In this document: piece by piece, positions 1,422-49,854 of the stretch | How positions within the stretch are numbered: the first letter of the stretch is position 1 | Layout of the letters: each line of letters starts with the position of its first letter | Virus record (IMG/VR): IMGVR_UViG_2529293239_000010 | Strand: one strand, 5' to 3' | Origin: a virus | Taxonomy: Duplodnaviria; Heunggongvirae; Uroviricota; Caudoviricetes | Length of the DNA stretch: 49,854 bases | Position numbers and translations under genes: made by a program | Notes under the pieces: generated by a model | Seen by the model: the letters and a program-made list of their open reading frames with translations, nothing else | Database searches by the model: none | Told to the model about the DNA's origin: nothing

Positions 1422-3893
1422 TTAAAAATCAGCCTGATTCGGGATCAGTTTTTGCCAGATAACTGAAATGTATTTTGCCTGGTAACGGGCGTCATCAAGT
1501 GCATTATGGCGCTCACCTTCGAATGGAATAGCCGTTCTGGCATCGAAGTCTATGGCTTTCCCCAGCTCAACGATTGTGCGTACATCGCGATCGTTGTAGT
1601 AACGCCACGGGCAGGGGATCCCCTGCCGTTCGTATGAACGGCGCAAAATCGTGTTGTCGAAGTTGGCTCCATTTCCCCAGACCTGAACAAAAAATTCACC
1701 GGAGTTTTCGTCGATAAATTCCCGCAATTGTAACAGTGCATCATCTAACGGGATTTCATCGGTCATAATGGCAGACTGCGCTTCACGTGATTGCTTCAGC
1801 CACCTTTTAATGACGTCACGATCAATGACTCCGCCAGCAGTTTCCAGATCGATAGTCTTACTAAATTCCGGTCCCATATCTCCGGTTTGCGGATCGAAAA
1901 ATATTGCACCTATTGAGATAATCGGGGCATCAGGATTTTTTCCCATGGTTTCAAGGTCGATCATTAGATGGTCACACGTCCTGCTGGTGGATGTGATAAC
2001 GTGATGACCGTTCATCGCAATTAAGGGATCTGCCGTCTCGCCAGTTTCACTATCGCTGGCGTGATCCTGAGCGCTACCAGCATTCTCCTTGTGTGGATGT
2101 TCAGCGCCTTCCATTTCCTTCGGATCATTTTCCTGAACTTCAACCTGATTCTCTTCATCGAATGTTTCCTGGTATGTTGCGTCACCCATCACCGCGCCAC
2201 AATCAGGGCAGTTGCCGCCACCGCTTTGACCGCAGGCGGTGCAGACTTTTTCCGGTTCCTGTTGCGCTACTGGCTCAGGTTGTTTCGTTTCTGGCTCGTT
2301 TTGTTGCGTATTTGGGCTGTTTTGTTCCGCTTTCTGGTCGTTCTGTTCCGATTCTTGCTGGTTCTGGTTTACAGAATCGCGGGTTTCAATCCCCTTTACC
2401 CATTTCGGATCATTCGGGTCGCTAATCCCTGCAACAAATTCTCCGCGAGAGGCAGCAAGCAACTTATCGGCGTCAGGCTGGCTGATATTGGCTGCCTGCA
2501 TAATTTTGTTTACTTCGTCAGCGGTAACTTTTACCGGCTCTGGTTGTGCGGTCGTGTCAGATGCACCAGTATTTTGTTGTGAACCTGAGTACGTGCCGTT
2601 TTTACGTGCGAAGTATTCCTCTTTTGTGATTTCCGTAGCTCCCAAGGCTAGTGCTTTTTCCAGACCAGAAAGTTTGTTTGCGCGACCGTATTTTTCGCCA
2701 TCCTTGTCGGTGAAGAGGAAGTAGAACGGCCCCTCACGCTCTACAGATGGTTCGACTTCCACTTTGCATTCGGTTTTTTCGTTGCCCGGAATTGCCGTTT
2801 CCACTGCATCAGTTTCTGGTACTGGCGACGAGAGAGTATCAGTTGCGCTCTGATTTCTTCCTTCATCTTCAAACACGCCCTTTGTAGTCAGGTATTCAGT
2901 AATGTATTTGTTCAGTGCCACAGGGTCTTTGTGAATGTCGATCGGACGTTCACGGACAAGGCCAAAAATAGTCTGGCGGTCGTAGCGAAGGGCATCAGGC
3001 TGTTTGCGCATTGATGCCGAGATACGCTTCCAGTCTTCGCGGTCGTTGTCGATAACTTCATTTTTTGCCCAGCGATGGATGCTGCCGTCAATGTTTCCGG
3101 CATCCACATCACCAGGCCAGAGAGCGTAGGCCAGTTCGTCATCCAGTGTTTTCCATGTCTGCTTGTATTCGCGATGAATGGCAGCAATGACCGGGCTGAT
3201 TTTTCCTGTTGAATTTTCACTGTGCTGTTGATTGGTTCTGGCGCGGGCGAGATCAACAACAGACGTGTATTTTCCGGTTTCCTTGCGTTCACCTTCGCGA
3301 CGTTTTTTCCAGATGCGCATCTCTGCCTGAATTTCGGGCCATTTGGCACCAGGCTTACATTTATGCTTAACCCACCCGATGGCATGCAGCTTAAGCTCCG
3401 GATACATGGCGTTAACTTCTGGCATTTTCATCAACGCTTCAACGATATGTCCGTCGAATGTTGCCATGTCTTCCTGCAACAATTCCTGTGCGCTAATAAC
3501 CATATCAACGGTGATGTTTTCACATGTGTCGAACTTAACCATGACAGCGTTCTGTACTTCAGGGGCCAGCTTGTCAAAAGTGACGTTCATCGGATCTGAT
3601 TCAGTCTCAACCGGGACAAAGGAAGCAGACTCCTCATCCCAGCGGTTTTCCTGCATATATTCAGCATCCCAGGAATCGAGGGCAGGGCGGGGTATACCGG
3701 GTTTATCCTCGCAGACAAGAAATTTATAAGCGCAGTCCTGAGCAGCCGGATAATGTTCCAGGAATTGCCAGTGAAATTTTGCGCGGGCGCGACGTTCATC
3801 ACCGGCTTCAATGGCAGTGGCTACAGCGACGGCACCTTCTTCCTTTATTGCCTGTTCGTCCGGAATGGCGGCGCAAATAAAGACTTTACTCAT
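1422..3893 (-). CDS. Phage exonuclease, 823 aa, with C-terminal DEDDh (DnaQ-like) 3'-5' exonuclease domain and central CxxC...CxxC zinc ribbon
   Basis: C-terminal motifs DLETMG ... WGNGANFD ... HNALDDA fit the DEDDh exonuclease fold; CTACGQ...CPDCG zinc ribbon; Q/E/N-rich low-complexity linker encoded by imperfect tandem DNA repeats around 2240..2360. Confidence 0.8.
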   Translation of the reverse strand: MSKVFICAAIPDEQAIKEEGAVAVATAIEAGDERRARAKFHWQFLEHYPAAQDCAYKFLVCEDKPGIPRPALDSWDAEYMQENRWDEESASFVPVETESDPMNVTFDKLAPEVQNAVMVKFDTCENITVDMVISAQELLQEDMATFDGHIVEALMKMPEVNAMYPELKLHAIGWVKHKCKPGAKWPEIQAEMRIWKKRREGERKETGKYTSVVDLARARTNQQHSENSTGKISPVIAAIHREYKQTWKTLDDELAYALWPGDVDAGNIDGSIHRWAKNEVIDNDREDWKRISASMRKQPDALRYDRQTIFGLVRERPIDIHKDPVALNKYITEYLTTKGVFEDEGRNQSATDTLSSPVPETDAVETAIPGNEKTECKVEVEPSVEREGPFYFLFTDKDGEKYGRANKLSGLEKALALGATEITKEEYFARKNGTYSGSQQNTGASDTTAQPEPVKVTADEVNKIMQAANISQPDADKLLAASRGEFVAGISDPNDPKWVKGIETRDSVNQNQQESEQNDQKAEQNSPNTQQNEPETKQPEPVAQQEPEKVCTACGQSGGGNCPDCGAVMGDATYQETFDEENQVEVQENDPKEMEGAEHPHKENAGSAQDHASDSETGETADPLIAMNGHHVITSTSRTCDHLMIDLETMGKNPDAPIISIGAIFFDPQTGDMGPEFSKTIDLETAGGVIDRDVIKRWLKQSREAQSAIMTDEIPLDDALLQLREFIDENSGEFFVQVWGNGANFDNTILRRSYERQGIPCPWRYYNDRDVRTIVELGKAIDFDARTAIPFEGERHNALDDARYQAKYISVIWQKLIPNQADF

Positions 3894-4467: not shown

Positions 4468-4923
4468 TGTTTTTGGTTTTAACTGTTCCGCGTGCGCTCA
4501 GCCGCATTCACCACATCACAAAATTCACTTTAAAAAGGGCGGCAGAGCAGTCACGGAGTAAAACTGATACCGCCAAACGTCACCAGAAAATTGATAACAG
4601 AGGGCGTTGCAGCGGGGTTGTCACTTAAGCGTATGGTCAACCTGACAACTCGGTGTCCTCAACGGGGAAGGAATAACCCCGCCATACTTACCGCCGCGCC
4701 ATTTCGCGGATTGCCACAACCGGAAACGCACGGTCGACGAAAATTTAACGACAGGCTATCTATGAACCAGCTACCTCGCCGGGCGCTTTCGCGTTATGGT
4801 CTGACTTTTCAGGGAAATATCCTTTCAGTAAACTGTCAGTGCCGGATGCTCACCCGTGTCCGGCGCACGCACTCCACCTCACCCGTGGAGAACTCCTTAA
4901 TCACCAACCCTCAGGAGGGTGAA

Positions 4924-17108: not shown

Positions 17109-18962
17109 ATGGCATTTAAACACTATGACGTGGTCAGGGCGGCATCGCCGTCAGACCTTGCGAAACAACTGACACAAAAACTGAAGGAGGGCTGGCAGCC
17201 GTTTGGTAGTCCGGTGGCCATAACCCCTTATACCCTGATGCAGGCGATTGCAGCAGAAGGTGATGTGGTCGTCAGTGGTGCAACTGAGCCGGAGTGGTAC
17301 TACGTCATCGTACTGGCCGGGCAATCCAATGCCATGGCTTACGGTGAAGGGCTTCCGCTTCCGGATTCATACGATGCGCCCCATCCGCGCATTAAGCAAC
17401 TGGCCCGTCGTAACACAGTGACTCCCGGTGGTGAAGTATGCGTATTTAACGACATCATTCCTGCTGACCATTGTCTGCATGATGTTCAGGATATGAGTAC
17501 GATTAACCATCCCCGGGCTGACCTGAGCAAAGGGCAGTACGGCTGTGTCGGACAGGGCTTACATATTGCCAAAAAACTGCTTCCGTATATCCCTAATAAT
17601 GCGGGGATCCTGCTGGTACCATGCTGTCGTGGTGGTTCGGCATTCACCCAGGGCACGGAGGGGACATTCAGCGAGTCCACGGGAGCCAGTCAGGATTCGG
17701 CTCGCTGGGGAGTGGGTAAGCCGTTATATCAGGATCTGCTTTTCCGCACGAAGGCAGCATTGCAGAAAAACCCGAAAAACGTTTTGCTGGCGATATGCTG
17801 GATGCAGGGGGAATTCGATATGACGAATGCCAGTTACGCCCAGCAGCCAGCAGCATTTCTTGCAATGGTACAGCAGTTCCGTGCTGACCTTGCCGGGCTG
17901 GCAGCGCAGTGTCACGGTGGAAGTCCGGCATCAGTCCCCTGGATTTGTGGCGACACGACATACGCGTGGAAACAAGAACACGGTACGCAATATGAAGTGG
18001 TATATGGTGCATATAAAGGTAAAGAATCCCAGCAGATTTATTTTGTTCCCTTTATGACCGATGGTAGCGGAGTTAATACACCGACAAACAACCCGTCAGA
18101 AGATCCTGATATTGCCGGGTCTGGTTATTACGGTTCGGCATCCCGAACGAACAAAAACTGGGTATCATCAAATCGCCCGACGCATTTCAGCTCATGGGCG
18201 CGTCGTGGCATTATTCCCGATCGTATGGCAACTGCTATTCTGAACGTAGCCGGTCGCACCTTAGCCTTCATTAGTGGTAAGGCACCGGAAATCAAACCCT
18301 CGCCCGGCGGCGACACGCCATCGGGGCCGTCTGAAGATGCATCCGTACGCACAATCTCCCTGTTGCCGACAGCCGGAGATGCTGCTGCGCAGGGCTGGAG
18401 CATTAAGAATGGCGGAATTCAGTTGTCAGATGGTGTATTTAAGATCACCAAGCAGAGCAATAAAGCCTGGTCCCTGACGCGCCCGGTGGATGACGCAGTC
18501 TCCCTGCTGACACGGGGTGGCAGACTGAGCTGTAAGTTTCGACTGTCAGGCGCACTGACCAACAACCAGTTCGGTCTGGGAATTTATCTGTATACCGATG
18601 TAGCGTTACCTGACGTCGTGGCGATGACCGGGACTGGTAACCCGTTCCTGATGTCGTTCTTCACCCAGACCACAGACGGCAAACTGAATCTGATGCATCA
18701 CAAGAAAGCCGGAAACACAAAGTTGGGCGAGTTCGGGAATTACAGTAACGACTGGCAGACGCTGGAGCTGGTGTTCACCGCCGGCAGTGCCACGGTTACT
18801 CCGAAACTGAATGGAGTGGCTGGCCCGGCATTCCAGGTCATAAAAGACAGTCTGACAGTGGGACTAAATGCACTGACGCTGACGGATATTACCAAAAATG
18901 CAACGTATGGCGTTGAGATAGAAAGTCTGGTGCTGGAGATAAATGCACCGGCATCATCATAA
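17109..18962 (+). CDS. NanS-p-like sialate O-acetylesterase (SGNH/DUF303 hydrolase)
   Basis: 617-aa ORF with [14 protein letters not shown]-hydrolase motif after an N-terminal domain; strong Shine-Dalgarno GGGAGGA; occupies the position downstream of the tRNA cluster as in Stx-type phages. Confidence 0.7.
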
Positions 18963-21405: not shown

Positions 21406-21732
21406 ATGACTAAAAATACTCGTTTTTCCCCCGAAGTCCGTCAGAGGGCGATTCGTATGGTTCTGGAAAGTCAGGGCGAATATGACTCACAGTGGGCGGC
21501 AATTTGTTCCATTGCCCCAAAGATTGGCTGTACACCGGAGACTCTGCGTGTCTGGGTACGCCAGCATGAGCGGGATACCGGAGGCGGTGATGGCGGGCTC
21601 ACCACCGCTGAACGTCAGCGTCTGAAAGAGCTGGAACGTGAAAATCGTGAACTGCGCCGCAGTAACGATATCCTTCGCCAGGCTTCCGCTTATTTTGCGA
21701 AGGCGGAGTTCGACCGCCTCTGGAAAAAGTGA
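21406..21732 (+). CDS. IS629 transposase OrfA (HTH)
   Basis: 108-aa [24 protein letters not shown]... with leucine-zipper-like C-terminus, typical IS3-family OrfA. Confidence 0.85.
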
Positions 21733-22619
21733 TGCCACTGCTGGATAAGCTGCGTAAGCTGTACGGGGTCGGACCGGTATGCAGTGAACTACATATTGCC
21801 CCGTCAACGTATTACCACTGTCAGCAACAGCGACATCATCCTGATAAACGCAGTGCCCGTGCGCAGCGCGATGACTGGCTGAAGAAAGAGATACTGCGCG
21901 TATACGATGGGAATCATCAGGTATACGGTGTGCGTAAAGTCTGGCGTCAGTTGTTACGGGAAGGTATCAGAGTGGCCAGATGCACTGTGGCACGTCTCAT
22001 GGCGGTTATGGGACTTGCCGGTGTTCTCCGGGGTAAAAAGGTCCGTACGACCATCAGCCGGAAAGCCGTTGCCGCAGGCGACCGCGTAAACCGTCAGTTC
22101 GTGGCAGAACGACCTGACCAGCTGTGGGTGGCTGATTTTACTTACGTCAGCACATGGCAGGGCTTCGTCTATGTGGCGTTCATTATTGATGTGTTTGCCG
22201 GATACATCGTGGGGTGGCGGGTCTCATCGTCCATGGAAACGACATTCGTGCTGGATGCTCTGGAGCAGGCGTTATGGGCCCGTCGACCGTCCGGCACGGT
22301 CCATCACAGTGATAAAGGTTCTCAGTATGTATCGCTGGCCTACACACAGCGGCTTAAGGAAGCCGGATTACTGGCATCAACAGGAAGTACAGGCGACTCG
22401 TATGACAACGCGATGGCGGAGAGCATCAATGGTCTTTACAAAGCGGAGGTAATACACCGTAAGAGCTGGAAAAACCGTGCAGAAGTGGAACTGGCCACAC
22501 TCACGTGGGTGGACTGGTATAATAATCGACGATTGCTGGAAAGGCTGGGCCACATCCCTCCGGCAGAAGCAGAAAAAGCTTATTATGCTTCCATCGGAAA
22601 CGATGATCTGGCAGCCTGA
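21729..22619 (+). CDS. IS629 transposase OrfB (DDE catalytic domain), normally made as an OrfAB fusion by -1 frameshift
   Basis: 296-aa ORF overlapping orfA in the -1 frame; DDE integrase-core region (WVADFTYV..., HSDKGSQY..., [10 protein letters not shown]). Confidence 0.85.
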
Positions 22620-22744: not shown

Positions 22745-23365
22745 ATGAAAGATCAAGATGTTAGGTTCGCGGTGCATCATAAGCTTTTGAAAGAATCGCA
22801 TTTAGATCCAGACTGCCTTGTGGTCGATGAATTTTCCATATCCCTTGGCGCCAGTAGAGCAGACATTGCTGTAATAAATGGTGTTATACACGGGTACGAG
22901 CTCAAAAGTGAATATGACTCTTTGGAGCGTTTGCCTCTTCAAATCAAGCATTATTCTTCTGTAATGGACAAGGTTACTCTTGTCGTAGCTGAGAAACATC
23001 TTGAGGGAGCATTAAAGTTAATCCCAGGTTGGTGGGGCGTTAAAACGGTTTCTGTTGGGCCAAAAGGCGCCATTCTTATAAAGCACATGCGTGGAGAAAA
23101 GCTTAATCGAAACCATGACACATTGATGCTCGCTCAATTGCTTTGGAAAGATGAATGTATCGACGTACTTGAACGATGGGGCTATTCCAAAGGAATCAAA
23201 AGCAAGCCCCGATTTGAGTTATGGAATATTATTGCGGAAAATATTCCAATAGCGAATCTCAGGCTTGAAGTCAGAACAGCCTTAAAGAAACGCGTAGGCT
23301 GGAAAGTTAAGGCTTGGCAGGCTGAGTCTGCGCCAACCAATAAAGCTGTCTCACGACTAACGTAA
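22745..23365 (+). CDS. Cargo protein A (206 aa), unknown function, with PD-(D/E)xK-like nuclease motif
   Basis: Strong Shine-Dalgarno GGAGGGAGTAAGGAG and TATAAT box upstream; motif VVDEF...RADIAVINGVIHGYELKSE fits a restriction-endonuclease-like D...ExK core; AT-rich relative to flanking phage DNA. Confidence 0.6.
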   Translation: MKDQDVRFAVHHKLLKESHLDPDCLVVDEFSISLGASRADIAVINGVIHGYELKSEYDSLERLPLQIKHYSSVMDKVTLVVAEKHLEGALKLIPGWWGVKTVSVGPKGAILIKHMRGEKLNRNHDTLMLAQLLWKDECIDVLERWGYSKGIKSKPRFELWNIIAENIPIANLRLEVRTALKKRVGWKVKAWQAESAPTNKAVSRLT

Positions 23366-24374
23366 TATGGTGCGTATGTGCAACTTTACGCCATTCTTTA
23401 GAGCCGCCAGATTTGTTAGCGCCTAATGATCTTTGGTAAATGTAATCATCCCCCCAACTAAATTTGGAACCAAAGACTTGATACTCTGGCGAACTAACAA
23501 GGGTAGTACATAAGTTTTTAGTTTGGCCCCATCCATTTCCTTTAACTGCGGTACCTTTTACAAAGATCCATGAGGTATCGTTCGAATATCTCACTGAGAC
23601 ATACTGAGACATGAAGCGTGGGTCTACGCTCGTAATGGTAGAGCTAGCGGTGGGATAATCACTAAAACTTGGCGTTCTTCCATTGCTAAAATTCTGTACT
23701 ACGTACATCCAAAGATCGTATTCATGGCGCGGAATATGATGAACTTGATGTTGCGGTATCCCTGCCTGTGATGCTGGGTATGCGGTTGAAGATAAAATCA
23801 AGTTTCTCCACGGAGCTTGGCCTGATAATGTGTTGACCATGCTTAATGCTTGTTGTTTTAAACTATCAGTTGCGTTTTGAATATCTCCAAAATCAATGAT
23901 TACATCAATTAAACTAGGATGAATATTTAAGTGGTTAACCAGACTTGTGAATTGGTGCCATGTCTGGGGGGTGATAGATATAGCGAGCCCATTGATTAAG
24001 TTGCGTTGAACAGCATGTATATAGTTTGTTGAATATGCGGGAGAAACAACAGGGATAATTTCCTTACCATTTACTCTAGCATCTTGGATACACATATCTA
24101 GAGGATGATGGCGGCTCGAACCATGTTTATCTAAATATTTAACATCCAGCAAAACAGGACGATTGGCTTTCCAGGATGCCGCAAGGTTAATACCGAAGTC
24201 AGATAAGTAAGAACTCAAACTCTTCTTGTAGCATTCGTTTTCATAATCCCAGTCTATGTCTGGAATGGTAATGATCGGAGTAAAACCAGAGAGCGTAGTT
24301 TGATCTAAAAGCATCAGAGATTCATATTCAGCAGGCTTCCATTTCAGCTGTGGATAATATTGATGTTGACTCAT
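23307..24374 (-). CDS. Cargo protein B (355 aa), unknown function, convergent partner of cargo protein A
   Basis: AAGGAG Shine-Dalgarno upstream of the ATG at 24374; 3' end overlaps that of gene A by 59 bp; AT-rich; no motif I can assign. Confidence 0.6.
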   Translation of the reverse strand: MSQHQYYPQLKWKPAEYESLMLLDQTTLSGFTPIITIPDIDWDYENECYKKSLSSYLSDFGINLAASWKANRPVLLDVKYLDKHGSSRHHPLDMCIQDARVNGKEIIPVVSPAYSTNYIHAVQRNLINGLAISITPQTWHQFTSLVNHLNIHPSLIDVIIDFGDIQNATDSLKQQALSMVNTLSGQAPWRNLILSSTAYPASQAGIPQHQVHHIPRHEYDLWMYVVQNFSNGRTPSFSDYPTASSTITSVDPRFMSQYVSVRYSNDTSWIFVKGTAVKGNGWGQTKNLCTTLVSSPEYQVFGSKFSWGDDYIYQRSLGANKSGGSKEWRKVAHTHHITLVVRQLYWLAQTQPAKP

Positions 24375-44216: not shown

Positions 44217-44227
44217 GTGGGGTGAAT

Positions 44228-47200
44228 ATGGCAGTAAAAATTTCAGGTGTACTGAAAGACGGCACAGGAAAACCGGTACAGAACTGCACAATCCAGCTGA
44301 AAGCAAAACGTAACAGTACCACGGTGGTGGTGAACACGCTGGCATCTGAAAATCCGGATGAAGCCGGGCGTTACAGCATGGACGTTGAGTACGGTCAGTA
44401 CAGCGTTATTCTGTTGGTGGAAGGATTCCCGCCGTCACATGCCGGGACCATCACCGTGTATGAAGATTCCCGACCCGGTACGCTGAATGATTTTCTCGGT
44501 GCCATGACGGAGGATGATGCCCGTCCGGAGGCACTGCGCCGTTTTGAGCTGATGGTGGAAGAGGTGGCGCGTAACGCGTCCGTGGTGGCACAGAACACGG
44601 CAGCCGCGAAGAAGTCAGCCAGTGATGCCAGCACATCAGCCCGTGAGGCGGCAACCCATGCGACTGATGCTGCAGGCTCAGCACGCGCAGCCAGCACGTC
44701 AGCCGGACAGGCCGCGTCGTCGGCTCAGTCAGCGACTTCCAGCGCAGGAACGGCATCAACAAAGGCCACTGAAGCATCAAAAAGTGCTGCCGCTGCAGAG
44801 TCCTCAAAAAGCGCGGCAGCTACCAGTGCCAGTGCCGCGAAAACGTCAGAAACGAATGCTGCAGCGTCACAACAATCAGCAGCCACTTCTGCATCCACCG
44901 CGACTACGAAAGCGTCAGAAGCTGCCACCTCAGCCCGGGATGCGGCGGCTTCAAAAGAGGCGGCAAAATCATCAGAAACGAACGCATCCTCGAGCGCCAG
45001 TAGCGCAGCTTCCTCGGCAACAGCGGCAGGAAATTCCGCGAAGGCGGCAAAAACGTCAGAGACGAACGCCAGGTCTTCTGAAACGGCAGCGGGACAGAGC
45101 GCCTCGGCTGCGGCAGGCTCAAAAACAGCGGCTGCGTCGTCTGCCAGTGCAGCGTCAACAAGTGCCGGGCAGGCCTCAGCCAGTGCCACCGCCGCCGGAA
45201 AATCGGCAGAAAGCGCCGCATCGTCTGCTTCAACAGCCACAACGAAGGCTGGCGAAGCCACTGAACAGGCCAGCGCAGCAGCGAGGTCTGCTTCCGCAGC
45301 GAAGACATCCGAAACGAACGCGAAAGCGTCGGAAACCAGCGCAGAATCCTCAAAAACGGCTGCCGCATCGTCAGCCAGTTCGGCGTCGTCATCGGCCTCA
45401 TCGGCGTCTGCTTCAAAAGATGAGGCGACCAGACAGGCGTCAGCAGCGAAGGGTAGCGCCACGACGGCATCCACGAAGGCGACAGAGGCAGCTGGCAGTG
45501 CGACGGCGGCAGCTCAGAGCAAAAGTACGGCGGAATCTGCAGCAACGCGCGCCGAGACAGCGGCAAAACGGGCAGAGGATATTGCATCCGCCGTGGCGCT
45601 TGAGGATGCGAGCACGACGAAAAAGGGGATAGTACAGCTCAGCAGTGCGACCAACAGCACTTCCGAGTCACTGGCGGCAACGCCAAAAGCCGTTAAGGCC
45701 GCGTATGACCTGGCTAACGGGAAATACACCGCACAGGATGCAACGACAGCACAGAAAGGGATAATCCAGCTAAGCAGCGCGACCAACAGCACGTCTGAAA
45801 CGCTGGCGGCAACGCCAAAGGCAGTAAAAGCAGCCAATGACAATGCTGAGAAACGTCTGCAGAAAGATCAGAACGGTGCGGATATCCCTGGCAAAGACAC
45901 CTTTACGAAAAATATTGGTGCCTGCCGTGCCTTCGGTGGGTCAGTAAGCACAACAACAGGAAACTGGACGACTGCACAGTTTATCGAGTGGCTGGATTCT
46001 CAGGGAGCATTTAACCATCCATACTGGATGTGCAAGGGTTCCTGGTCTTATGGCAATAATAAAATCATTACTGATACTGGCTGCGGTAATATTCATCTCG
46101 CCGGAGCTGTCATTGAAGTAATGGGGATAAAGTCAGCGATGACGATCCGCATTACCACACCGACCACCTCCACTGGTGGTGGAACAACTAACGCCCAGTT
46201 TACCTATATTAATCACGGAACAGATTATTCACCTGGCTGGCGAAGGGACTATAACTCCAGAAATAAGCCAACGGCATCAGAGATCGGGGCGTTACCGTCA
46301 GGTGGAACAGCAGTATCATCAGTTAATCTGTCTTCAAAAGGTCGGGTAACCGCGCTGACAGACAATACGCAGGGGGCAACAGGTCTTGAGTTATACGAGG
46401 TGTATAACAACGGATATCCAACAGCGTATGGAAATATCATTCACCTGAAAGGGATGACAGCCGTTGGCGAAGGTGAGTTACTCATCGGCTGGAGTGGTAC
46501 AAGCGGTGCTCATGCTCCGGCATTTATTCGTTCACGACGGGATACGACCGACGCAAACTGGTCGCCGTGGGCGCAGCTTTACACCTCGGCTCATCCTCCT
46601 GCAGAGTTTTATCCAGTCGGTGCACCAATCCCGTGGCCATCAGATACCGTTCCGTCTGGTTATGCCCTGATGCAGGGGCAGACTTTTGACAAATCTGCTT
46701 ACCCGAAACTTGCAGCCGCTTATCCGTCAGGCGTGATCCCTGATATGCGTGGCTGGACGATTAAGGGCAAGCCCGCCAGTGATCGAGCCGTATTGTCTCA
46801 GGAACAGGACGGCATTAAATCACACACCCACAGCGCCAGCGTATCCAGTACGGATTTGGGGACGAAAACCACATCGTCGTTTGATTACGGCACTAAATCC
46901 ACGAATAACACTGGTGCGCATACCCATAGTGTTAGCGGTACGGCTGCTTCAGCCGGTGCACATACCCATTCGATGACATTTGTTTCAGGTGGTTCCAGTG
47001 GTGCTCCGGGAAGTGGATCACCTGATTATTCTAAATACAGTGTTAACACTTCTTCTGCAGGCGCTCATACGCACTCTGTATCGGGTACTGCTGCAAGCGC
47101 AGGTGCACACGCACATACTGTCGGTATTGGTGCTCATACGCACTCCGTTGCGATTGGTTCACATGGACATACCATCACCGTTAACGCTGCTGGTAACGCG

Positions 47201-47251
47201 GAAAACACCGTCAAAAACATCGCATTTAACTATATTGTGAGGCTTGCATAA
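44228..47251 (+). CDS. stf: Side tail fibre protein Stf with expanded Ala/Ser-rich repeat region and His-rich C-terminal repeats
   Basis: N-terminus [30 protein letters not shown] as lambda Stf; central low-complexity repeats around KTSETNA; C-terminal GAHTHS repeats; stop overlaps the tfa start. Confidence 0.85.
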
Positions 47252-47835
47252 TGGCATTCAGAATGAGTGAACAACCACGGACCATAAAAATTTATAATCT
47301 GCTGGCCGGAACTAATGAATTTATTGGTGAAGGTGATGCATATATTCCGCCTCATACAGGTCTGCCAGCAAACAGTACCGATATTGCACCGCCAGATATT
47401 CCGGCAGGCTTCGTGGCTGTTTTCAACAGTGATGAGGCATCGTGGCATCTCGTTGAAGACCATCGGGGTAAAACGGTTTATGACGTAGCGTCAGGGGACG
47501 CGTTATTTATTTCTGAACTCGGTCCGTTACCGGAAAATGTTACCTGGTTATCGCCGGAAGGGGAGTTTCAGAAGTGGAACGGCACAGCCTGGGTGAAAGA
47601 TGCAGAAGCAGAAAAACTGTTCCGGATCCGGGAGGCGGAAGAAACAAAAAACAGCCTGATGCAGGTAGCCAGTGAGCATATTGCGCCACTTCAGGATGCT
47701 GTAGATCTGGAAATCGCAACGGAGGAAGAAACCTCATTGCTGGAAGCCTGGAAAAAATATCGGGTGTTGCTGAACCGTGTTGATACATCAACTGCACCTG
47801 ATATTGAGTGGCCTACGAACCCTGTCAGGGAGTAA
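47251..47835 (+). CDS. tfa: Tail fibre assembly protein Tfa
   Basis: 194 aa starting [54 protein letters not shown], lambda Tfa. Confidence 0.9.
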
Positions 47836-47847
47836 TCATTGGGATTA

Positions 47848-47884
47848 TGCCGCAGCACGTCTTAAGCAAGAACGTGCTGCGGTT
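47848..47884. terminator. Bidirectional hairpin terminator between tfa and the convergent methyltransferase gene
   Basis: CCGCAGCACG...CGTGCTGCGG inverted repeat followed by a T-rich tract on the plus strand. Confidence 0.5.
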
Positions 47885-47889
47885 GGATG

Positions 47890-48555
47890 CTATTTTTTCC
47901 CTGAAGCGGAAAACATTACTACAGTACCTTGAACCTTGGTTTTAACATTCTCGAAATGCTCTGAGAGTATATGTGTTAAGCCTTCTTCGGAATCTTTTGT
48001 GTTTGAAAAGATGCCTTTCTGATTGTAAATGCGCATCAGTTTTTGACCGAAGCTATTGTGCACAACTCCATCGCCAAGAATTGTGGCTCCGTATAGAGTT
48101 CCATCGTCAGTTAAGGCCTGCGCCGCATTGCGTATTACACAGCTTTTTGTAGATATATTTCCAGGCAGGCAGTGAAGAAGGTAAAACATGGAAATGGAAT
48201 CAAATTGACCATGTAACGCCGCGGGATAAGGTTCAAAAACATCATGGCTAATTTTATGTTTAATTTTTGATTCCCCAGCCCTTGTAGATGCCGCGTTCAG
48301 GCTAGCTTCGTTCAAATCCATTAAAGATATCAGACTACTCTCAGGTACGTGAGTAAGGTAAAACCCAGTTCCAACACCAATATCCAGATGGTTGTTACCT
48401 ACATGTTCCAGAAAGTGTGGAAGAAGGTGTTCCTTTGTAGGACATCCCCATGCAAGCCGATTTGATACTCCCAAAACCCACCAGTCATAAAGCTTTAGGG
48501 TAAGTGGTGTGTAAATTTTAGCCCCATCATCTGTGTTTTTTTTCATTGATTTCAC
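47890..48555 (-). CDS. Class I SAM-dependent methyltransferase (moron)
   Basis: 221-aa ORF with motif I LDIGVGTGFY and downstream acidic/hydrophobic motifs (LMDLNEASL, FDSISMFYLLHCLP); AT-rich; opposite orientation to the tail genes. Confidence 0.65.
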   Translation of the reverse strand: MKSMKKNTDDGAKIYTPLTLKLYDWWVLGVSNRLAWGCPTKEHLLPHFLEHVGNNHLDIGVGTGFYLTHVPESSLISLMDLNEASLNAASTRAGESKIKHKISHDVFEPYPAALHGQFDSISMFYLLHCLPGNISTKSCVIRNAAQALTDDGTLYGATILGDGVVHNSFGQKLMRIYNQKGIFSNTKDSEEGLTHILSEHFENVKTKVQGTVVMFSASGKK

Positions 48556-48614
48556 CGTGTTATAGTTTTATTTGTGAATTAAATCAATTATGGCGATGAA
48601 TTACAAGGGGTTAA

Positions 48615-48884
48615 ATGCTGCCGCAGCATAGCGATATTGAAATAGCCTGGTATGCTTCGATACAGCAGGAGCCGAATGGCTGGAAGACCGTCACCACACA
48701 GTTCTACATCCAGGAATTCAGTGAGTATATTGCGCCACTGCAGGATGCTGTAGATCTGGAAATCGCAACGGAGGAAGAAAGATCGTTGCTGGAGGCATGG
48801 AATAAATATCGGGTATTGTTGAATCGTGTTGATACATCAACTGCACCTGATATTGAGTGGCCTGCAAATCCTGTCAGGGAGTAA
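48615..48884 (+). CDS. Tfa C-terminal-domain paralog or fragment (89 aa)
   Basis: C-terminal 53 aa nearly identical to the Tfa C-terminus; novel 36-aa N-terminus; AAGGGG Shine-Dalgarno before ATG 48615; lies within a direct repeat of the tfa 3' region. Confidence 0.4.
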
Positions 48885-49262
48885 TCATTGGGATTATGCC
48901 GCAGACACGTCGTATGCAGGAACGTGCTGCGGTTAGTTTGTGAGCTTTCGATAGTGGTTGTTATTTTTGCCCTTATTTGTTCCGGAGGCCATGGTTCAAT
49001 GGTCCGTCTGCCACCCTGTGGTGATGTCAGCAAAATCAGCCACTGCGCGAACCACAATAGCCCGGGAAGATGCTGAAGATCACCAGGTAAAGCTGTCAGC
49101 GCAGAAACTGGAAGAACTGCTCGCATCAATGGTTAAGGATGAGGTTGATCGCAATGATGGGATTTATTGACGTCAGCGAGAGCAGAAGGAAGAACTGAAT
49201 AACCTGAATGATTTACGCTCAATCAGAGCGATGGCGATTAGCGGCAATCACGCTCGATAAAA

Positions 49263-49296: not shown

Positions 49297-49854
49297 TTAA
49301 AACCGCATCAACCTTTCCACCAATTGTTCTTTACGGGCAACGATCCACCCATGTTGCTCCAGATAAAATTTAAACCGTTCCAGCGTGCATACCATCGCAT
49401 CGGCGGGGACTTTTTCTGTGAACTCGACCTGACCGTGTTTATCGAAGTGGATCAGTAATGCGCATCCATTATTTGGGGCGGGGGAGTTTTGTGCTGCAGG
49501 AGGACGTTTGTGGAGTTCTTCTTCCATTGCGTTAAATTTTTCAATGTAAGCTTCTTTTAGTCTGGCTGCTTTTTTGCCAGTAAATCCCATTACGAGGAAC
49601 ATGAAGCCGTCTTTTGTGATCAGGTAGCATCGTGATTCACGTTCTGCGCCGTTGCCAATTTCGACAGTCTGAACATCGGCCGAAAAGTTGGCTGATGTAA
49701 ATTCGGGAGAGCAGTCGAGTGTGTCAATCTTAGCTAAAACGTGTTTATGTTGTTTATCGAAGTAGTCGGCAACAGCTTGAGAGGTGGTAACCAGGCGACC
49801 ATCTTTGAAAAAGACTTTTGGTGACTCGTTAGAAAAAGTTATAGCTGTATTCAT
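49297..49854 (-). CDS. Rha family phage regulatory protein
   Basis: 185-aa ORF starting MNTAITFSNESPKVFFKDGRLVTTSQAVADYFDKQHKHVLAKI, Rha-like N-terminal domain; start codon sits at the window edge, so the true start could lie beyond it. Confidence 0.65.
   Translation of the reverse strand: MNTAITFSNESPKVFFKDGRLVTTSQAVADYFDKQHKHVLAKIDTLDCSPEFTSANFSADVQTVEIGNGAERESRCYLITKDGFMFLVMGFTGKKAARLKEAYIEKFNAMEEELHKRPPAAQNSPAPNNGCALLIHFDKHGQVEFTEKVPADAMVCTLERFKFYLEQHGWIVARKEQLVERLMRF

Follow-up and report, generated by a model that had tools for sequence, protein, structure and literature searches.

A ybcY methyltransferase module between duplicated tfa gene ends in a lambdoid prophage, best read as the scar of an imprecise inter-phage junction

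Morons, in the sense of the Hendrix/Juhala literature, are cargo genes added between conserved genes of phages; lom and bor of lambda are examples. The closest described counterpart of the locus studied here is the tfaD–ybcY–tfaX module (b0561-b0563) of the K-12 cryptic prophage DLP12, which shares its gene order and orientation with our window (the whole 49,854-nt stretch of DNA that was analysed) and is 97.5% identical to it in DNA across 47397-48861 (1,465 nt). The locus is this annotated module, common in E. coli lambdoid prophages, and the arrangement was already known. The two versions differ in that, in K-12 only, ybcY is a pseudogene, tfaD has no stf partner and tfaX is shortened to 61 aa, whereas the window has an intact methyltransferase (218 aa), tfa (194 aa) and 89-aa ORF in what appears to be a complete prophage. 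At a threshold of at least 95% identity, the 823-bp cargo of the module was found in 3,844 of 5,426 complete E. coli genomes (71%), at 4,893 places in all, with up to 4 copies per genome and identities of 95-99.9% among thousands of cassette copies. It was also found in about 14 records of sequenced temperate phages, and the viable phages PhiR26_1, 2G7b, ev243, Kati and Turner carry it.

The features of the locus, in window coordinates, are as follows.
44222..47251, plus strand: stf, side tail fibre gene (1009 aa, from the ORF list), the last structural gene upstream of tfa
47251..47835, plus strand: tfa, full-length gene for the 194-aa tail fibre assembly protein (residues 72-191 match Pfam Caudo_TAP, E 3.2e-45)
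47659..47884, plus strand: repeat copy 1, the final 54 tfa codons, stop codon and hairpin (205/226 match to copy 2)
47776..47814, plus strand: 39-bp core identical in both copies (partner 48825-48863)
47849..47883, no strand: hairpin 1, which separates tfa from the methyltransferase gene convergent with it; distance to the methyltransferase stop codon, 6 nt
47885..48707, no strand: cargo between the repeats, 823 bp, holding the methyltransferase gene, the divergent promoter spacer and the first part of the ORF that derives from PHROG 3893
47890..48546, minus strand: YbcY-family class I SAM-dependent methyltransferase, 218 aa (conserved ATG at 48546; alternative GTG at 48555 giving 221 aa)
48556..48614, no strand: AT-rich divergent spacer with sigma-70-like hexamers directed toward the methyltransferase (minus strand)
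48587-48582 and 48564-48559, minus strand: hexamers TTGATT and TATAAC, 17 nt apart, by consensus reading
48614-48587: second hexamer pair, TTAACC-16-CATAAT, by consensus reading
48615..48884, plus strand: chimeric, TfaX-like ORF of 89 aa (codons 1-35 from a PHROG 3893 gene, 36-89 the Tfa C-terminal domain)
48702..48720, plus strand: putative point of illegitimate joining of the PHROG 3893 gene to codon 141 of tfa
48708..48934, plus strand: repeat copy 2, a tfa 3' fragment with hairpin 2 (48898-48933)
48958..49170, plus strand: tail-fibre-related gene fragment, a third remnant 3' of copy 2 (PHROG 7703 and PHROG 1141, 'tail fiber protein', residues 19-70)
49297..49854, minus strand: Rha-family regulator gene (Pfam Phage_pRha, E 3e-27)

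Annotations of relatives agree with this layout. In the 99%-identical record NZ_CP128947 stf is labelled 'prophage tail fiber N-terminal domain-containing protein', and tfa is annotated as tail fibre assembly in relatives also. The fragment at 48958..49170, for which a Pfam search gave no match, is to PGAP a 'DUF4376 domain-containing protein, internal stop, missing N-terminus'. The position of the Rha-family gene indicates that the prophage extends past the cassette, and beyond rha the relatives carry an ash gene, then an ompW fragment, then trpA. The methyltransferase gene lies inside the prophage, since relatives have rha, ash and the attachment-site region beyond it.

The duplication of the tfa 3' end, which the original prediction had proposed, is real. 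Local alignment of 47659-47884 with 48708-48934 gave direct repeats with 205 of 226 positions identical (90.7%) and one 1-nt indel, located within the hairpin arm, and cross-copy blastn E-values of 1e-83 to 1e-85 exclude chance similarity. The coordinates first given for the repeats mark their in-frame coding part correctly, while the codon counts of 53 shared and 36 N-terminal have to be corrected to 54 and 35; the stop codon and hairpin are shared as well. The 54 repeated codons correspond to the conserved C-terminal helical domain of the Caudo_TAP family. In Tfa proteins the fibre-binding N-terminal domain is variable and the C-terminal trimerisation domain is conserved (PMC9608196). PGAP labels copy 2 in a relative as 'tail fiber assembly protein, incomplete, missing N-terminus', and copy-2 alleles are also present in full-length tfa genes of other phages.

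Between the repeats lies, as had been predicted, an AT-rich and oppositely oriented methyltransferase gene. The cargo has a GC content of 41.6% (tfa, 48.2%; stf, 54.9%; whole window, 52.3%), and the product exceeds the Pfam gathering scores of Methyltransf_12, _23, _25 and _11, with 37.5 bits against a cut-off of 30 for Methyltransf_12. It has the Rossmann-like seven-stranded fold of class I SAM methyltransferases. Motif I (GxGxG), present as DIGVGTG and including D58 and G60, is invariant in the family, as are an N-terminal YDWWV...W.C.T lid and the residues C38, H56, H104, H128 and C129. The view that it is not a DNA methyltransferase was borne out: the (D/N/S)PP(Y/F/W) and PC/ENV motifs and any likeness to DNA methyltransferase families were absent, and the fold is of the small-molecule type. 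The structural neighbours of YbcY are MM_2633 (3dtn), DhpI (3ou2), BelI (9fce) and Coq5 (4obw), together with phosphoethanolamine/PE N-methyltransferases (8ys9 and 4iv0) and JHAMT (7ec0); at 10-21% identity and with a flat ranking, they single out no substrate class. The YbcY family differs from small-molecule and lipid class I SAM methyltransferases in having its own invariant N-terminal lid and invariant C/H residues. A sequence search of the PDB gave weak matches alone (best E 4e-6, JHAMT), no NCBIfam family reached its cut-off, and the corresponding family, PHROG 2132, is labelled 'unknown function'.

The methyltransferase was intact at 218 aa in 79 of 80 IMG/VR copies, and its 15 synonymous and 16 non-synonymous variant sites give an omega of roughly 0.3 as a crude count; the gene is intact even within a heavily degraded DLP12 remnant. 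Distant homologues had tfa or N35 flanks (N35 being the 35-codon N-terminus of the 89-aa ORF) at 0 of 73 loci and in 0 of 6 context look-ups. Such flanks are confined to 99%-identical Escherichia/Shigella copies, homologues of 75% identity or less being without tfa flanks, which argues for a single origin of the arrangement. The neighbourhoods of the homologues showed synteny at genus level only and are uninformative on function; in 17 Pseudomonas loci the homologue is followed by an enoyl-CoA hydratase-family gene and then by a CorA-like gene.

An anti-defence role, which had also been suggested, was not upheld: PADLOC defence models gave nothing significant (a sole partial match of 12.8 bits, E 0.009), and YbcY relatives are solitary chromosomal genes in many Gammaproteobacteria. 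In published work, a ybcY deletion mutant had no effect in a Hha toxicity assay (PMC2408971). Our literature searches returned gene-list mentions only for ybcY, and nothing relevant on tfaX, on moron plus methyltransferase or on the phage names. We infer that the product is a cytoplasmic methyltransferase of small-molecule or lipid type, derived from a solitary chromosomal gammaproteobacterial gene family.

The near-identical ybcY<>tfaX spacer of K-12 is an RNAP-sigma70 SELEX site, carries an H-NS mark and contains the same TTGATT-17-TATAAC pair as the window (PMC3946193). The mark suggests silencing under laboratory conditions. Two stable hairpins accompany the repeats. Hairpin 1 folds at -28.6 kcal/mol on the plus strand and -25.4 kcal/mol on the minus strand (z about -4.3 to -4.5), and hairpin 2 at -24.1 kcal/mol on the plus strand (z -2.6). 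The hairpin structure described in the original prediction stands, but neither hairpin is a textbook intrinsic terminator, as the U-run of hairpin 1 begins about 10 nt downstream on the plus strand and none is present on the minus strand. On consensus or in vitro evidence, the lysogen probably transcribes the methyltransferase gene from a sigma-70 promoter of its own within this AT-rich, H-NS-bound spacer; the transcripts would end at the hairpin that it has in common with tfa, although this hairpin has no U-tract on the strand of the gene.

The 89-aa ORF matches PHROG 2341 over its full length and PHROG 3893 at residues 3-37. Caudo_TAP positions 75-130 of 131 fall on its residues 31-86 (E 6e-25) and positions 1-74 are missing; the C-terminal domain of Tfa is present and the N-terminal fibre-binding domain absent. 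Direct reading places AAGGGG 5 nt before the ATG, in agreement with the ribosome binding site predicted for this ORF. The novelty claimed for its N-terminus, by contrast, does not hold, since this stretch derives from the start of a PHROG 3893 gene. An intact 79-aa relative of that gene is present in Klebsiella phage Kp4882-3 (L008:4004-4243; tblastn), and the gene runs on beyond codon 35, without a tfa fusion, in 38 E. coli genomes and phage Ayreon. The last position homologous to the Ayreon-type gene is 48701, and identity to tfa in frame begins at 48720; the stretch between shows imperfect microhomology. Ayreon is a deletion derivative from which 47926-48584 is gone and in which the final 12 methyltransferase codons are kept. 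A search for a donor-type locus, with an intact methyltransferase adjoining a full-length PHROG 3893 gene, found none; the sole extended version, of the Ayreon type, has lost the methyltransferase and contains a stop codon. Two further assignments were discarded. The 'DinI family protein' fragment of PGAP (minus strand, 48633-48713) encodes a peptide without a Pfam match, while the plus strand matches PHROG 3893, and the ORF 3' of the Klebsiella 79-aa gene, considered as UmuD-like, had no Pfam match.

Our preferred reading, to which we give a probability of about 0.7, is that this is the ybcY module of DLP12-type prophages, that its repeats come from one imprecise inter-phage junction and that the chimera is a by-product. 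The methyltransferase gene is solitary, convergent to tfa and placed at the usual cargo site 3' of the tail-fibre genes, where relatives carry cdtABC, sit-like transporter genes, ompT or a hydrolase. Given that the N-terminus of the 89-aa ORF is a PHROG 3893 5' end joined to tfa codon 141, the second tfa copy is most simply a leftover of an exchange. In an ancestral event between two lambdoid phages, a donor segment would have arrived that carried, in this order, tfa, the hairpin, ybcY on the minus strand and the first part of the PHROG 3893 gene. An imprecise join at 48702-48720 would have linked its right end to the resident tfa at codon 141, stranding the 3' end of that gene together with its hairpin and native downstream flank. 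The 9% divergence of the copies would then be that of two tfa alleles, not of decay after duplication. Since the repeat encodes the conserved Tfa trimerisation domain, it offers DNA-level conservation between variable fibre modules and variable cargo. The conserved tfa end could thereby serve as a substrate for homologous recombination, with breakpoints scattering across both copies in different phages, and a crossover between the copies in the 39-bp core would delete the cassette or, in reverse, add it.

Two genomes, NZ_CP043406 and NZ_CM169486, have the same prophage arm without the cassette (stf-tfa-DUF4376 fragment-rha-ash-ompW fragment-trpA). The single tfa end of both is a copy1/copy2 chimera that switches within the 39-bp identical core: as far as 47775 its diagnostic sites are mainly copy-1-like, though some carry copy-2 or private alleles, and from 47815 into the copy-2 flank 7/7 sites are copy-2-like. 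To judge from this chimeric end the repeats do recombine, and deletion between the repeats and homologous insertion would fit it equally well. With a tfa 5% diverged from that of the window, these genomes are not derivatives by a simple recent deletion. Cassette-free phages, too, have mosaic tfa 3' ends, which makes the allele patterns noisy. Across 80 IMG/VR loci, homology to the window begins at 47054, 47690, 47716, 47738 or 47850 and stops at 48839, 48862, 48956 or 49233. Among the IMG/VR loci with the Tfa type of the window and at least 250 nt downstream (n=47), 36 carry the cassette. The 11 loci without the full cassette include three deleted or contig-truncated versions and one with just 364 nt of unrelated sequence downstream. 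In the seven cassette-free loci with unrelated downstream sequence, none had a second tfa copy within the available length of up to 3.5 kb. The ORFs of three of these seven were read as cdtABC-like, a sit-like transporter and a DUF4236/DUF2971 pair; in this survey, proposed with the original prediction, alternative cargo lay after single tfa ends and not between paired repeats.

That prediction had seen a cassette inserted by recombination at the tail-fibre locus; recombination is retained, but the evidence for a cassette signature is better accommodated by one imprecise junction. A true recombinational cassette would be a circle with one hybrid tfa 3' end that enters any lambda-type tfa end by a single crossover and regenerates the repeats. 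The single chimeric repeat that switches in the 39-bp core mirrors such an integration exactly in reverse, the cassette occurs behind different fibre modules, and in some loci its left arm is reduced to the hairpin (from 47850). Every right arm, however, has the identical PHROG 3893 fusion joint, which points to one founding event; the seven cassette-free loci with other downstream cargo or sequence show no second tfa copy; the left breakpoints scatter as ordinary mosaic exchange with flanking homology would give; and there are no known circles or recombinase. We consider this mechanism rather unlikely, and the duplicated tfa ends are best read as a recombination scar, not as the mark of a dedicated cassette mechanism. 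A transposon- or integron-type cassette was rejected, as the repeats are 226 nt long, 9% diverged and coding, with no adjacent recombinase gene. Local tandem duplication of tfa, with the methyltransferase inserted into a second copy that then decayed, would give direct repeats with the second copy in frame. It is nevertheless very improbable, because what lies upstream of copy 2 is the start of a different gene family and not decayed tfa, the 5' two-thirds of tfa leaves no trace between the copies, the copies diverge by 9% against 95-99.9% identity among thousands of cassettes, and copy-2 alleles occur in full-length tfa of other phages. The stacking of fibre and chaperone gene fragments 3' of stf-tfa could recall the remains of a tail-fibre system with an invertible segment or alternative fibres, as in Mu G, P1 C or e14 P, but we see next to no chance of this: the repeats are direct and not inverted, neither the ORF list nor the annotations of relatives contain an adjacent invertase, and copy 2 is the conserved 3' domain alone, without an alternative fibre C-terminus. 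Likewise excluded is the alternative raised with the original prediction, of two full-length tfa paralogs that belong to an invertible or alternative fibre system, the methyltransferase being a core host gene beyond the prophage.

The chimera itself might be functional, as a free Tfa trimerisation domain that co-assembles with Tfa and modulates or poisons side-fibre assembly by the resident or superinfecting phages. Its ATG follows an SD-like AAGGGG, and the ORF has a PHROG to itself (2341), is present as an exact sequence on at least 1000 contigs and is 88-89 aa long in 56 of 80 IMG/VR loci, with C-termini that follow the tfa alleles; the part kept is the conserved oligomerisation domain (PMC9608196). 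Against this, the ORF is truncated, frameshifted or read through in K-12, IAI39, 2G7b, KKo009 and about one-fifth of IMG/VR copies, its N35 part has 4 synonymous and 8 non-synonymous variant sites and is not clearly different from neutral, the fibre-binding N-domain is missing, and the promoter hexamer proposed for tfaX overlaps the tfaX start codon (PMC3946193). We doubt that it has such a role; most likely the 89-aa ORF arose as a by-product and is not required for any function. We are equally sceptical of a broader proposal, in which YbcY would be a lysogen-benefit factor acting on a small molecule or envelope lipid, the TfaX-like chimera would interfere with side-fibre assembly by rival lambdoid phages and the two genes would form a host-modulating and phage-interference unit, mobile through tfa homology. 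If true, the benefit to the lysogen would explain why ybcY is kept intact in most E. coli genomes, even in eroded DLP12 remnants.

The locus, read as the product of an imprecise junction, is a case of routine lambdoid mosaicism, already annotated in E. coli K-12, and is useful as a clean illustration of it. In it, host-range modules and cargo would be joined by recombination at the conserved tfa 3' domain, and both the duplicated gene end and the chimeric small ORF (TfaX) would stem from one imprecise junction. YbcY is a very widespread prophage-borne orphan methyltransferase, found in 71% of complete E. coli genomes, and its substrate, once identified, would give a common orphan gene a function.

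Compared with described morons, the ybcY gene is moron-like in sitting between neighbours that are adjacent in NZ_CP043406 and NZ_CM169486 (tfa, then the DUF4376 fragment and rha), and in its lower GC and opposite orientation, and may be so in its own promoter-like elements and flanking hairpin. It is unlike the usual morons in that part of the upstream gene is duplicated on its flanks, a feature that we attribute to one imprecise junction. The 89-aa ORF, set beside Tfa proteins of the Caudo_TAP family such as lambda Tfa and Mu Tfa, lacks the N-terminal fibre-binding domain and carries a foreign N-terminus of 35 aa in its place.

The original prediction placed a direct repeat of the tfa 3' end around an AT-rich, oppositely oriented methyltransferase gene, and this arrangement is real. 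Copy 1 (47659-47884) and copy 2 (48708-48934) share 205 of 226 aligned positions (90.7%; E ~1e-84 by blastn), with one 1-nt indel in the hairpin arm. The coding stretch common to both comprises 54 codons plus the stop, and a stable hairpin closes each copy (-28.6 kcal/mol for copy 1, -24.1 kcal/mol for copy 2). The 823-bp piece between them (47885..48707), referred to here as the cassette, has a GC content of 41.6% versus 52.3% for the window. By ORF and profile reading the window is an E. coli lambdoid prophage that looks complete, and in near-identical genomes an ash gene, an ompW fragment and trpA come next beyond it. Its relevant features are:

1-1131, lambda-type integrase
Between integrase and stf in gene order, J and lom
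44222-47251 (+), stf
47251-47835 (+), tfa
47890-48546 (-), class I SAM methyltransferase gene, 218 aa (Pfam Methyltransf_12/23/25/11 above cut-off)
48615-48884 (+), 89-aa ORF, beginning in the 823-bp piece and extending into copy 2
48958-49170, third fibre-related fragment, just 3' of copy 2
Terminal end of the window, Rha-family gene

The N-terminal half of stf (44600-45850) is Ala/Ser/Thr-rich and made up of numerous short direct repeats in degenerate form (families D2-D12), with a GC content of 60-65% and strong AT skew.

According to a passage in PMC9608196, citing work on Mu Tfa, the N-terminal, fibre-binding domain of Tfa proteins is variable, and their C-terminal domain, helical and responsible for trimerisation, is conserved. 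It is the conserved domain that the repeat codes for, and the repeat thus constitutes a stretch of shared DNA lying between fibre modules and cargo, both of which vary. Comparison of 80 IMG/VR loci with the window revealed many homology breakpoints inside both copies, with left-side breakpoints at 47690, 47716, 47738 and 47850 and right-side breakpoints at 48839, 48862, 48956 and 49233. IAI39 and phage 2G7b have an unrelated fibre system, with no more than a fragment of the left copy behind it. In NZ_CP043406 and NZ_CM169486 the prophage has the same arm and occupies the same chromosomal site, but the cassette is absent; about 3 of 379 genomes are in this state (by subtraction of two counts). 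The lone tfa end of these two genomes is mostly copy-1-like at the diagnostic sites as far as 47775, a few of which carry copy-2 or private alleles, and copy-2-like at 7/7 sites from 47815, followed by copy-2 flank. Such a chimeric end would be the expected product of a crossover in the 39-bp identical core (47776..47814, partner 48825-48863); cassette deletion or, reversed, insertion would both fit. Besides repeat recombination, the methyltransferase gene has been lost repeatedly by small deletions, as indicated by a 659-bp deletion (47926-48584) in phage Ayreon and 38 E. coli genomes and a 176-bp deletion (window 48019-48194) at locus L148:4268 (IMGVR_UViG_2609460053_000006).

The N-terminus of the 89-aa ORF had been considered novel, which proved not to be so. 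Its first 35 codons match positions 2-36 of PHROG 3893, a 79-aa phage protein family, and an intact relative is present in Klebsiella phage Kp4882-3 (51% identity). The E. coli version of this gene is a pseudogene in Ayreon and the 38 E. coli genomes, where it runs past codon 35 and not into tfa. Ayreon lacks 47926-48584 but retains the final 12 methyltransferase codons along with the hairpin and the 3' fragment of tfa, and is therefore derived by deletion from a tfa–hairpin–ybcY(-)–PHROG 3893(+) arrangement. The simplest history is one imprecise exchange, in which a donor segment ending within the PHROG 3893 gene would have fused at 48702-48720 to codon 141 of the resident tfa, stranding the resident 3' end with its hairpin and native flank. 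Such an exchange fits the 9% difference between the copies, as against less than 5% among thousands of cassette copies, the occurrence of copy-2 alleles in full-length tfa of other phages, and the third fibre-related fragment. The duplicated tfa end is therefore best read as a recombination scar that is still recombining. The resulting 89-aa chimera is probably a by-product; 56 of 80 IMG/VR loci encode it at a length of 88-89 aa, K-12, IAI39, 2G7b, KKo009 and others have truncated, frameshifted or read-through versions, and variant sites in its first 35 codons are 4 synonymous versus 8 non-synonymous. That it acts as a free trimerisation domain is improbable.

The interpretation in the original prediction is thus partly supported: recombination at the tail-fibre locus is upheld, and a general cassette mechanism fared less well. 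We surveyed 47 IMG/VR loci that have this Tfa type and at least 250 nt downstream of it, and 36 held the ybcY cassette. Three of the other 11 have a deleted or contig-truncated cassette, and in one the sequence downstream is unrelated and just 364 nt long. In the last seven, a single tfa end gives way to unrelated sequence, with no second tfa copy in the stretch available downstream (up to 3.5 kb). ORFs were read in three of these seven, all in related prophages (L159:4458-6666, L152:4191-7489, L171:4189-6393). From the translated ORFs, we read the cargo after the tfa hairpin as an operon for a cdtA/B/C-like cytolethal distending toxin and a metal ABC transporter resembling sitABCD; a DUF2971 and DUF4236 pair, confirmed by Pfam, might be a defence system. 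Among 80 species-representative loci, tfa or PHROG 3893-like flanks accompanied the methyltransferase only at 99%-identical Escherichia/Shigella copies. Homologues of 56-90% identity are solitary in Salmonella, Citrobacter, E. albertii, Enterobacter, Yersinia and Aeromonas, some in ordinary chromosomal settings and others amid mobile-element debris. Together these comparisons argue against a general cassette mechanism.

The methyltransferase belongs to a broad family (1,611 matches), with members at 50-60% identity in Pseudomonas, Xanthomonas, Proteus, Erwinia, Yersinia and others. Some 55 positions do not vary among 40 members, including DIGVGTG, the N-terminal YDWWV...W.C.T, C38, H56, H104, H128 and C129. 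The gene is intact in 79 of 80 IMG/VR copies, with omega ~0.3 by a crude variant-site count. The AT-rich spacer contains sigma-70-like hexamers, and PMC3946193 lists the same spacer in K-12 among RNAP-sigma70 SELEX sites, marked for H-NS. At 17 Pseudomonas loci (L227-L265), an enoyl-CoA hydratase/isomerase-family gene lies ~250 nt 3' of the homologue on the same strand, followed by a CorA-like transporter gene. This synteny is genus-wide, and faintly hints at an acyl-CoA or lipid-related role.

The prophage has a separate, bona fide N6_N4 DNA methylase gene at 14784-15776 (+) (PF01555, E 7e-32), and the ybcY-type gene is therefore not its DNA methyltransferase. Elsewhere, a 228-aa early-region ORF (10434-11120, +) matches QueH (epoxyqueuosine reductase, PF02677, E 1e-65), a tRNA/queuosine-pathway enzyme aboard a lambdoid prophage. 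An 823-aa ORF adjoining the integrase (1422-3893, -) ends in an Rv2179c-like 3'-5' exoribonuclease domain (PF16473, E 9e-63) preceded by 640 residues to which no domain is assigned. We read a 617-aa ORF (17109-18962, +) with DUF1737, SASA (sialate O-acetylesterase) and DUF6645 domains as a NanS-like esterase, a type known in lambdoid and Stx prophages. An IS3-family transposase (rve/HTH_21; 21406-22619, +) adjoins a 355-aa 'Beta_protein' ORF (23307-24374, -; PF14350, E 8e-56) in the interval from the lysis region to the terminase genes, and this pair may be an additional cargo insertion.

The cargo is widespread, occurring at ≥95% identity in 3,844 of 5,426 complete E. coli genomes, with up to 4 copies per genome, and in ~14 sequenced temperate phages, among them PhiR26_1, 2G7b, ev243, Kati and Turner. 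The exact methyltransferase and 89-aa proteins are each found on at least 1000 contigs. Two contigs labelled as Bacillus sp. and Planococcaceae MAGs (L193, L201) carry the cassette with tfa flanks at 99% identity to E. coli, most likely through E. coli contamination or mis-binning. The families of the two proteins, PHROG 2132 (methyltransferase) and PHROG 2341 (89-aa ORF), are both labelled as of unknown function. We found no functional study of ybcY in the literature, where it is named in gene lists; deleting it changed nothing in one Hha toxicity assay (PMC2408971). The methyltransferase is a very common orphan. Judged by its sequence, the locus itself is an ordinary one that has been annotated before, with the same order and orientation as tfaD–ybcY–tfaX of the cryptic prophage DLP12 in E. 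coli K-12 and 97.5% identity to it over 1,465 nt.
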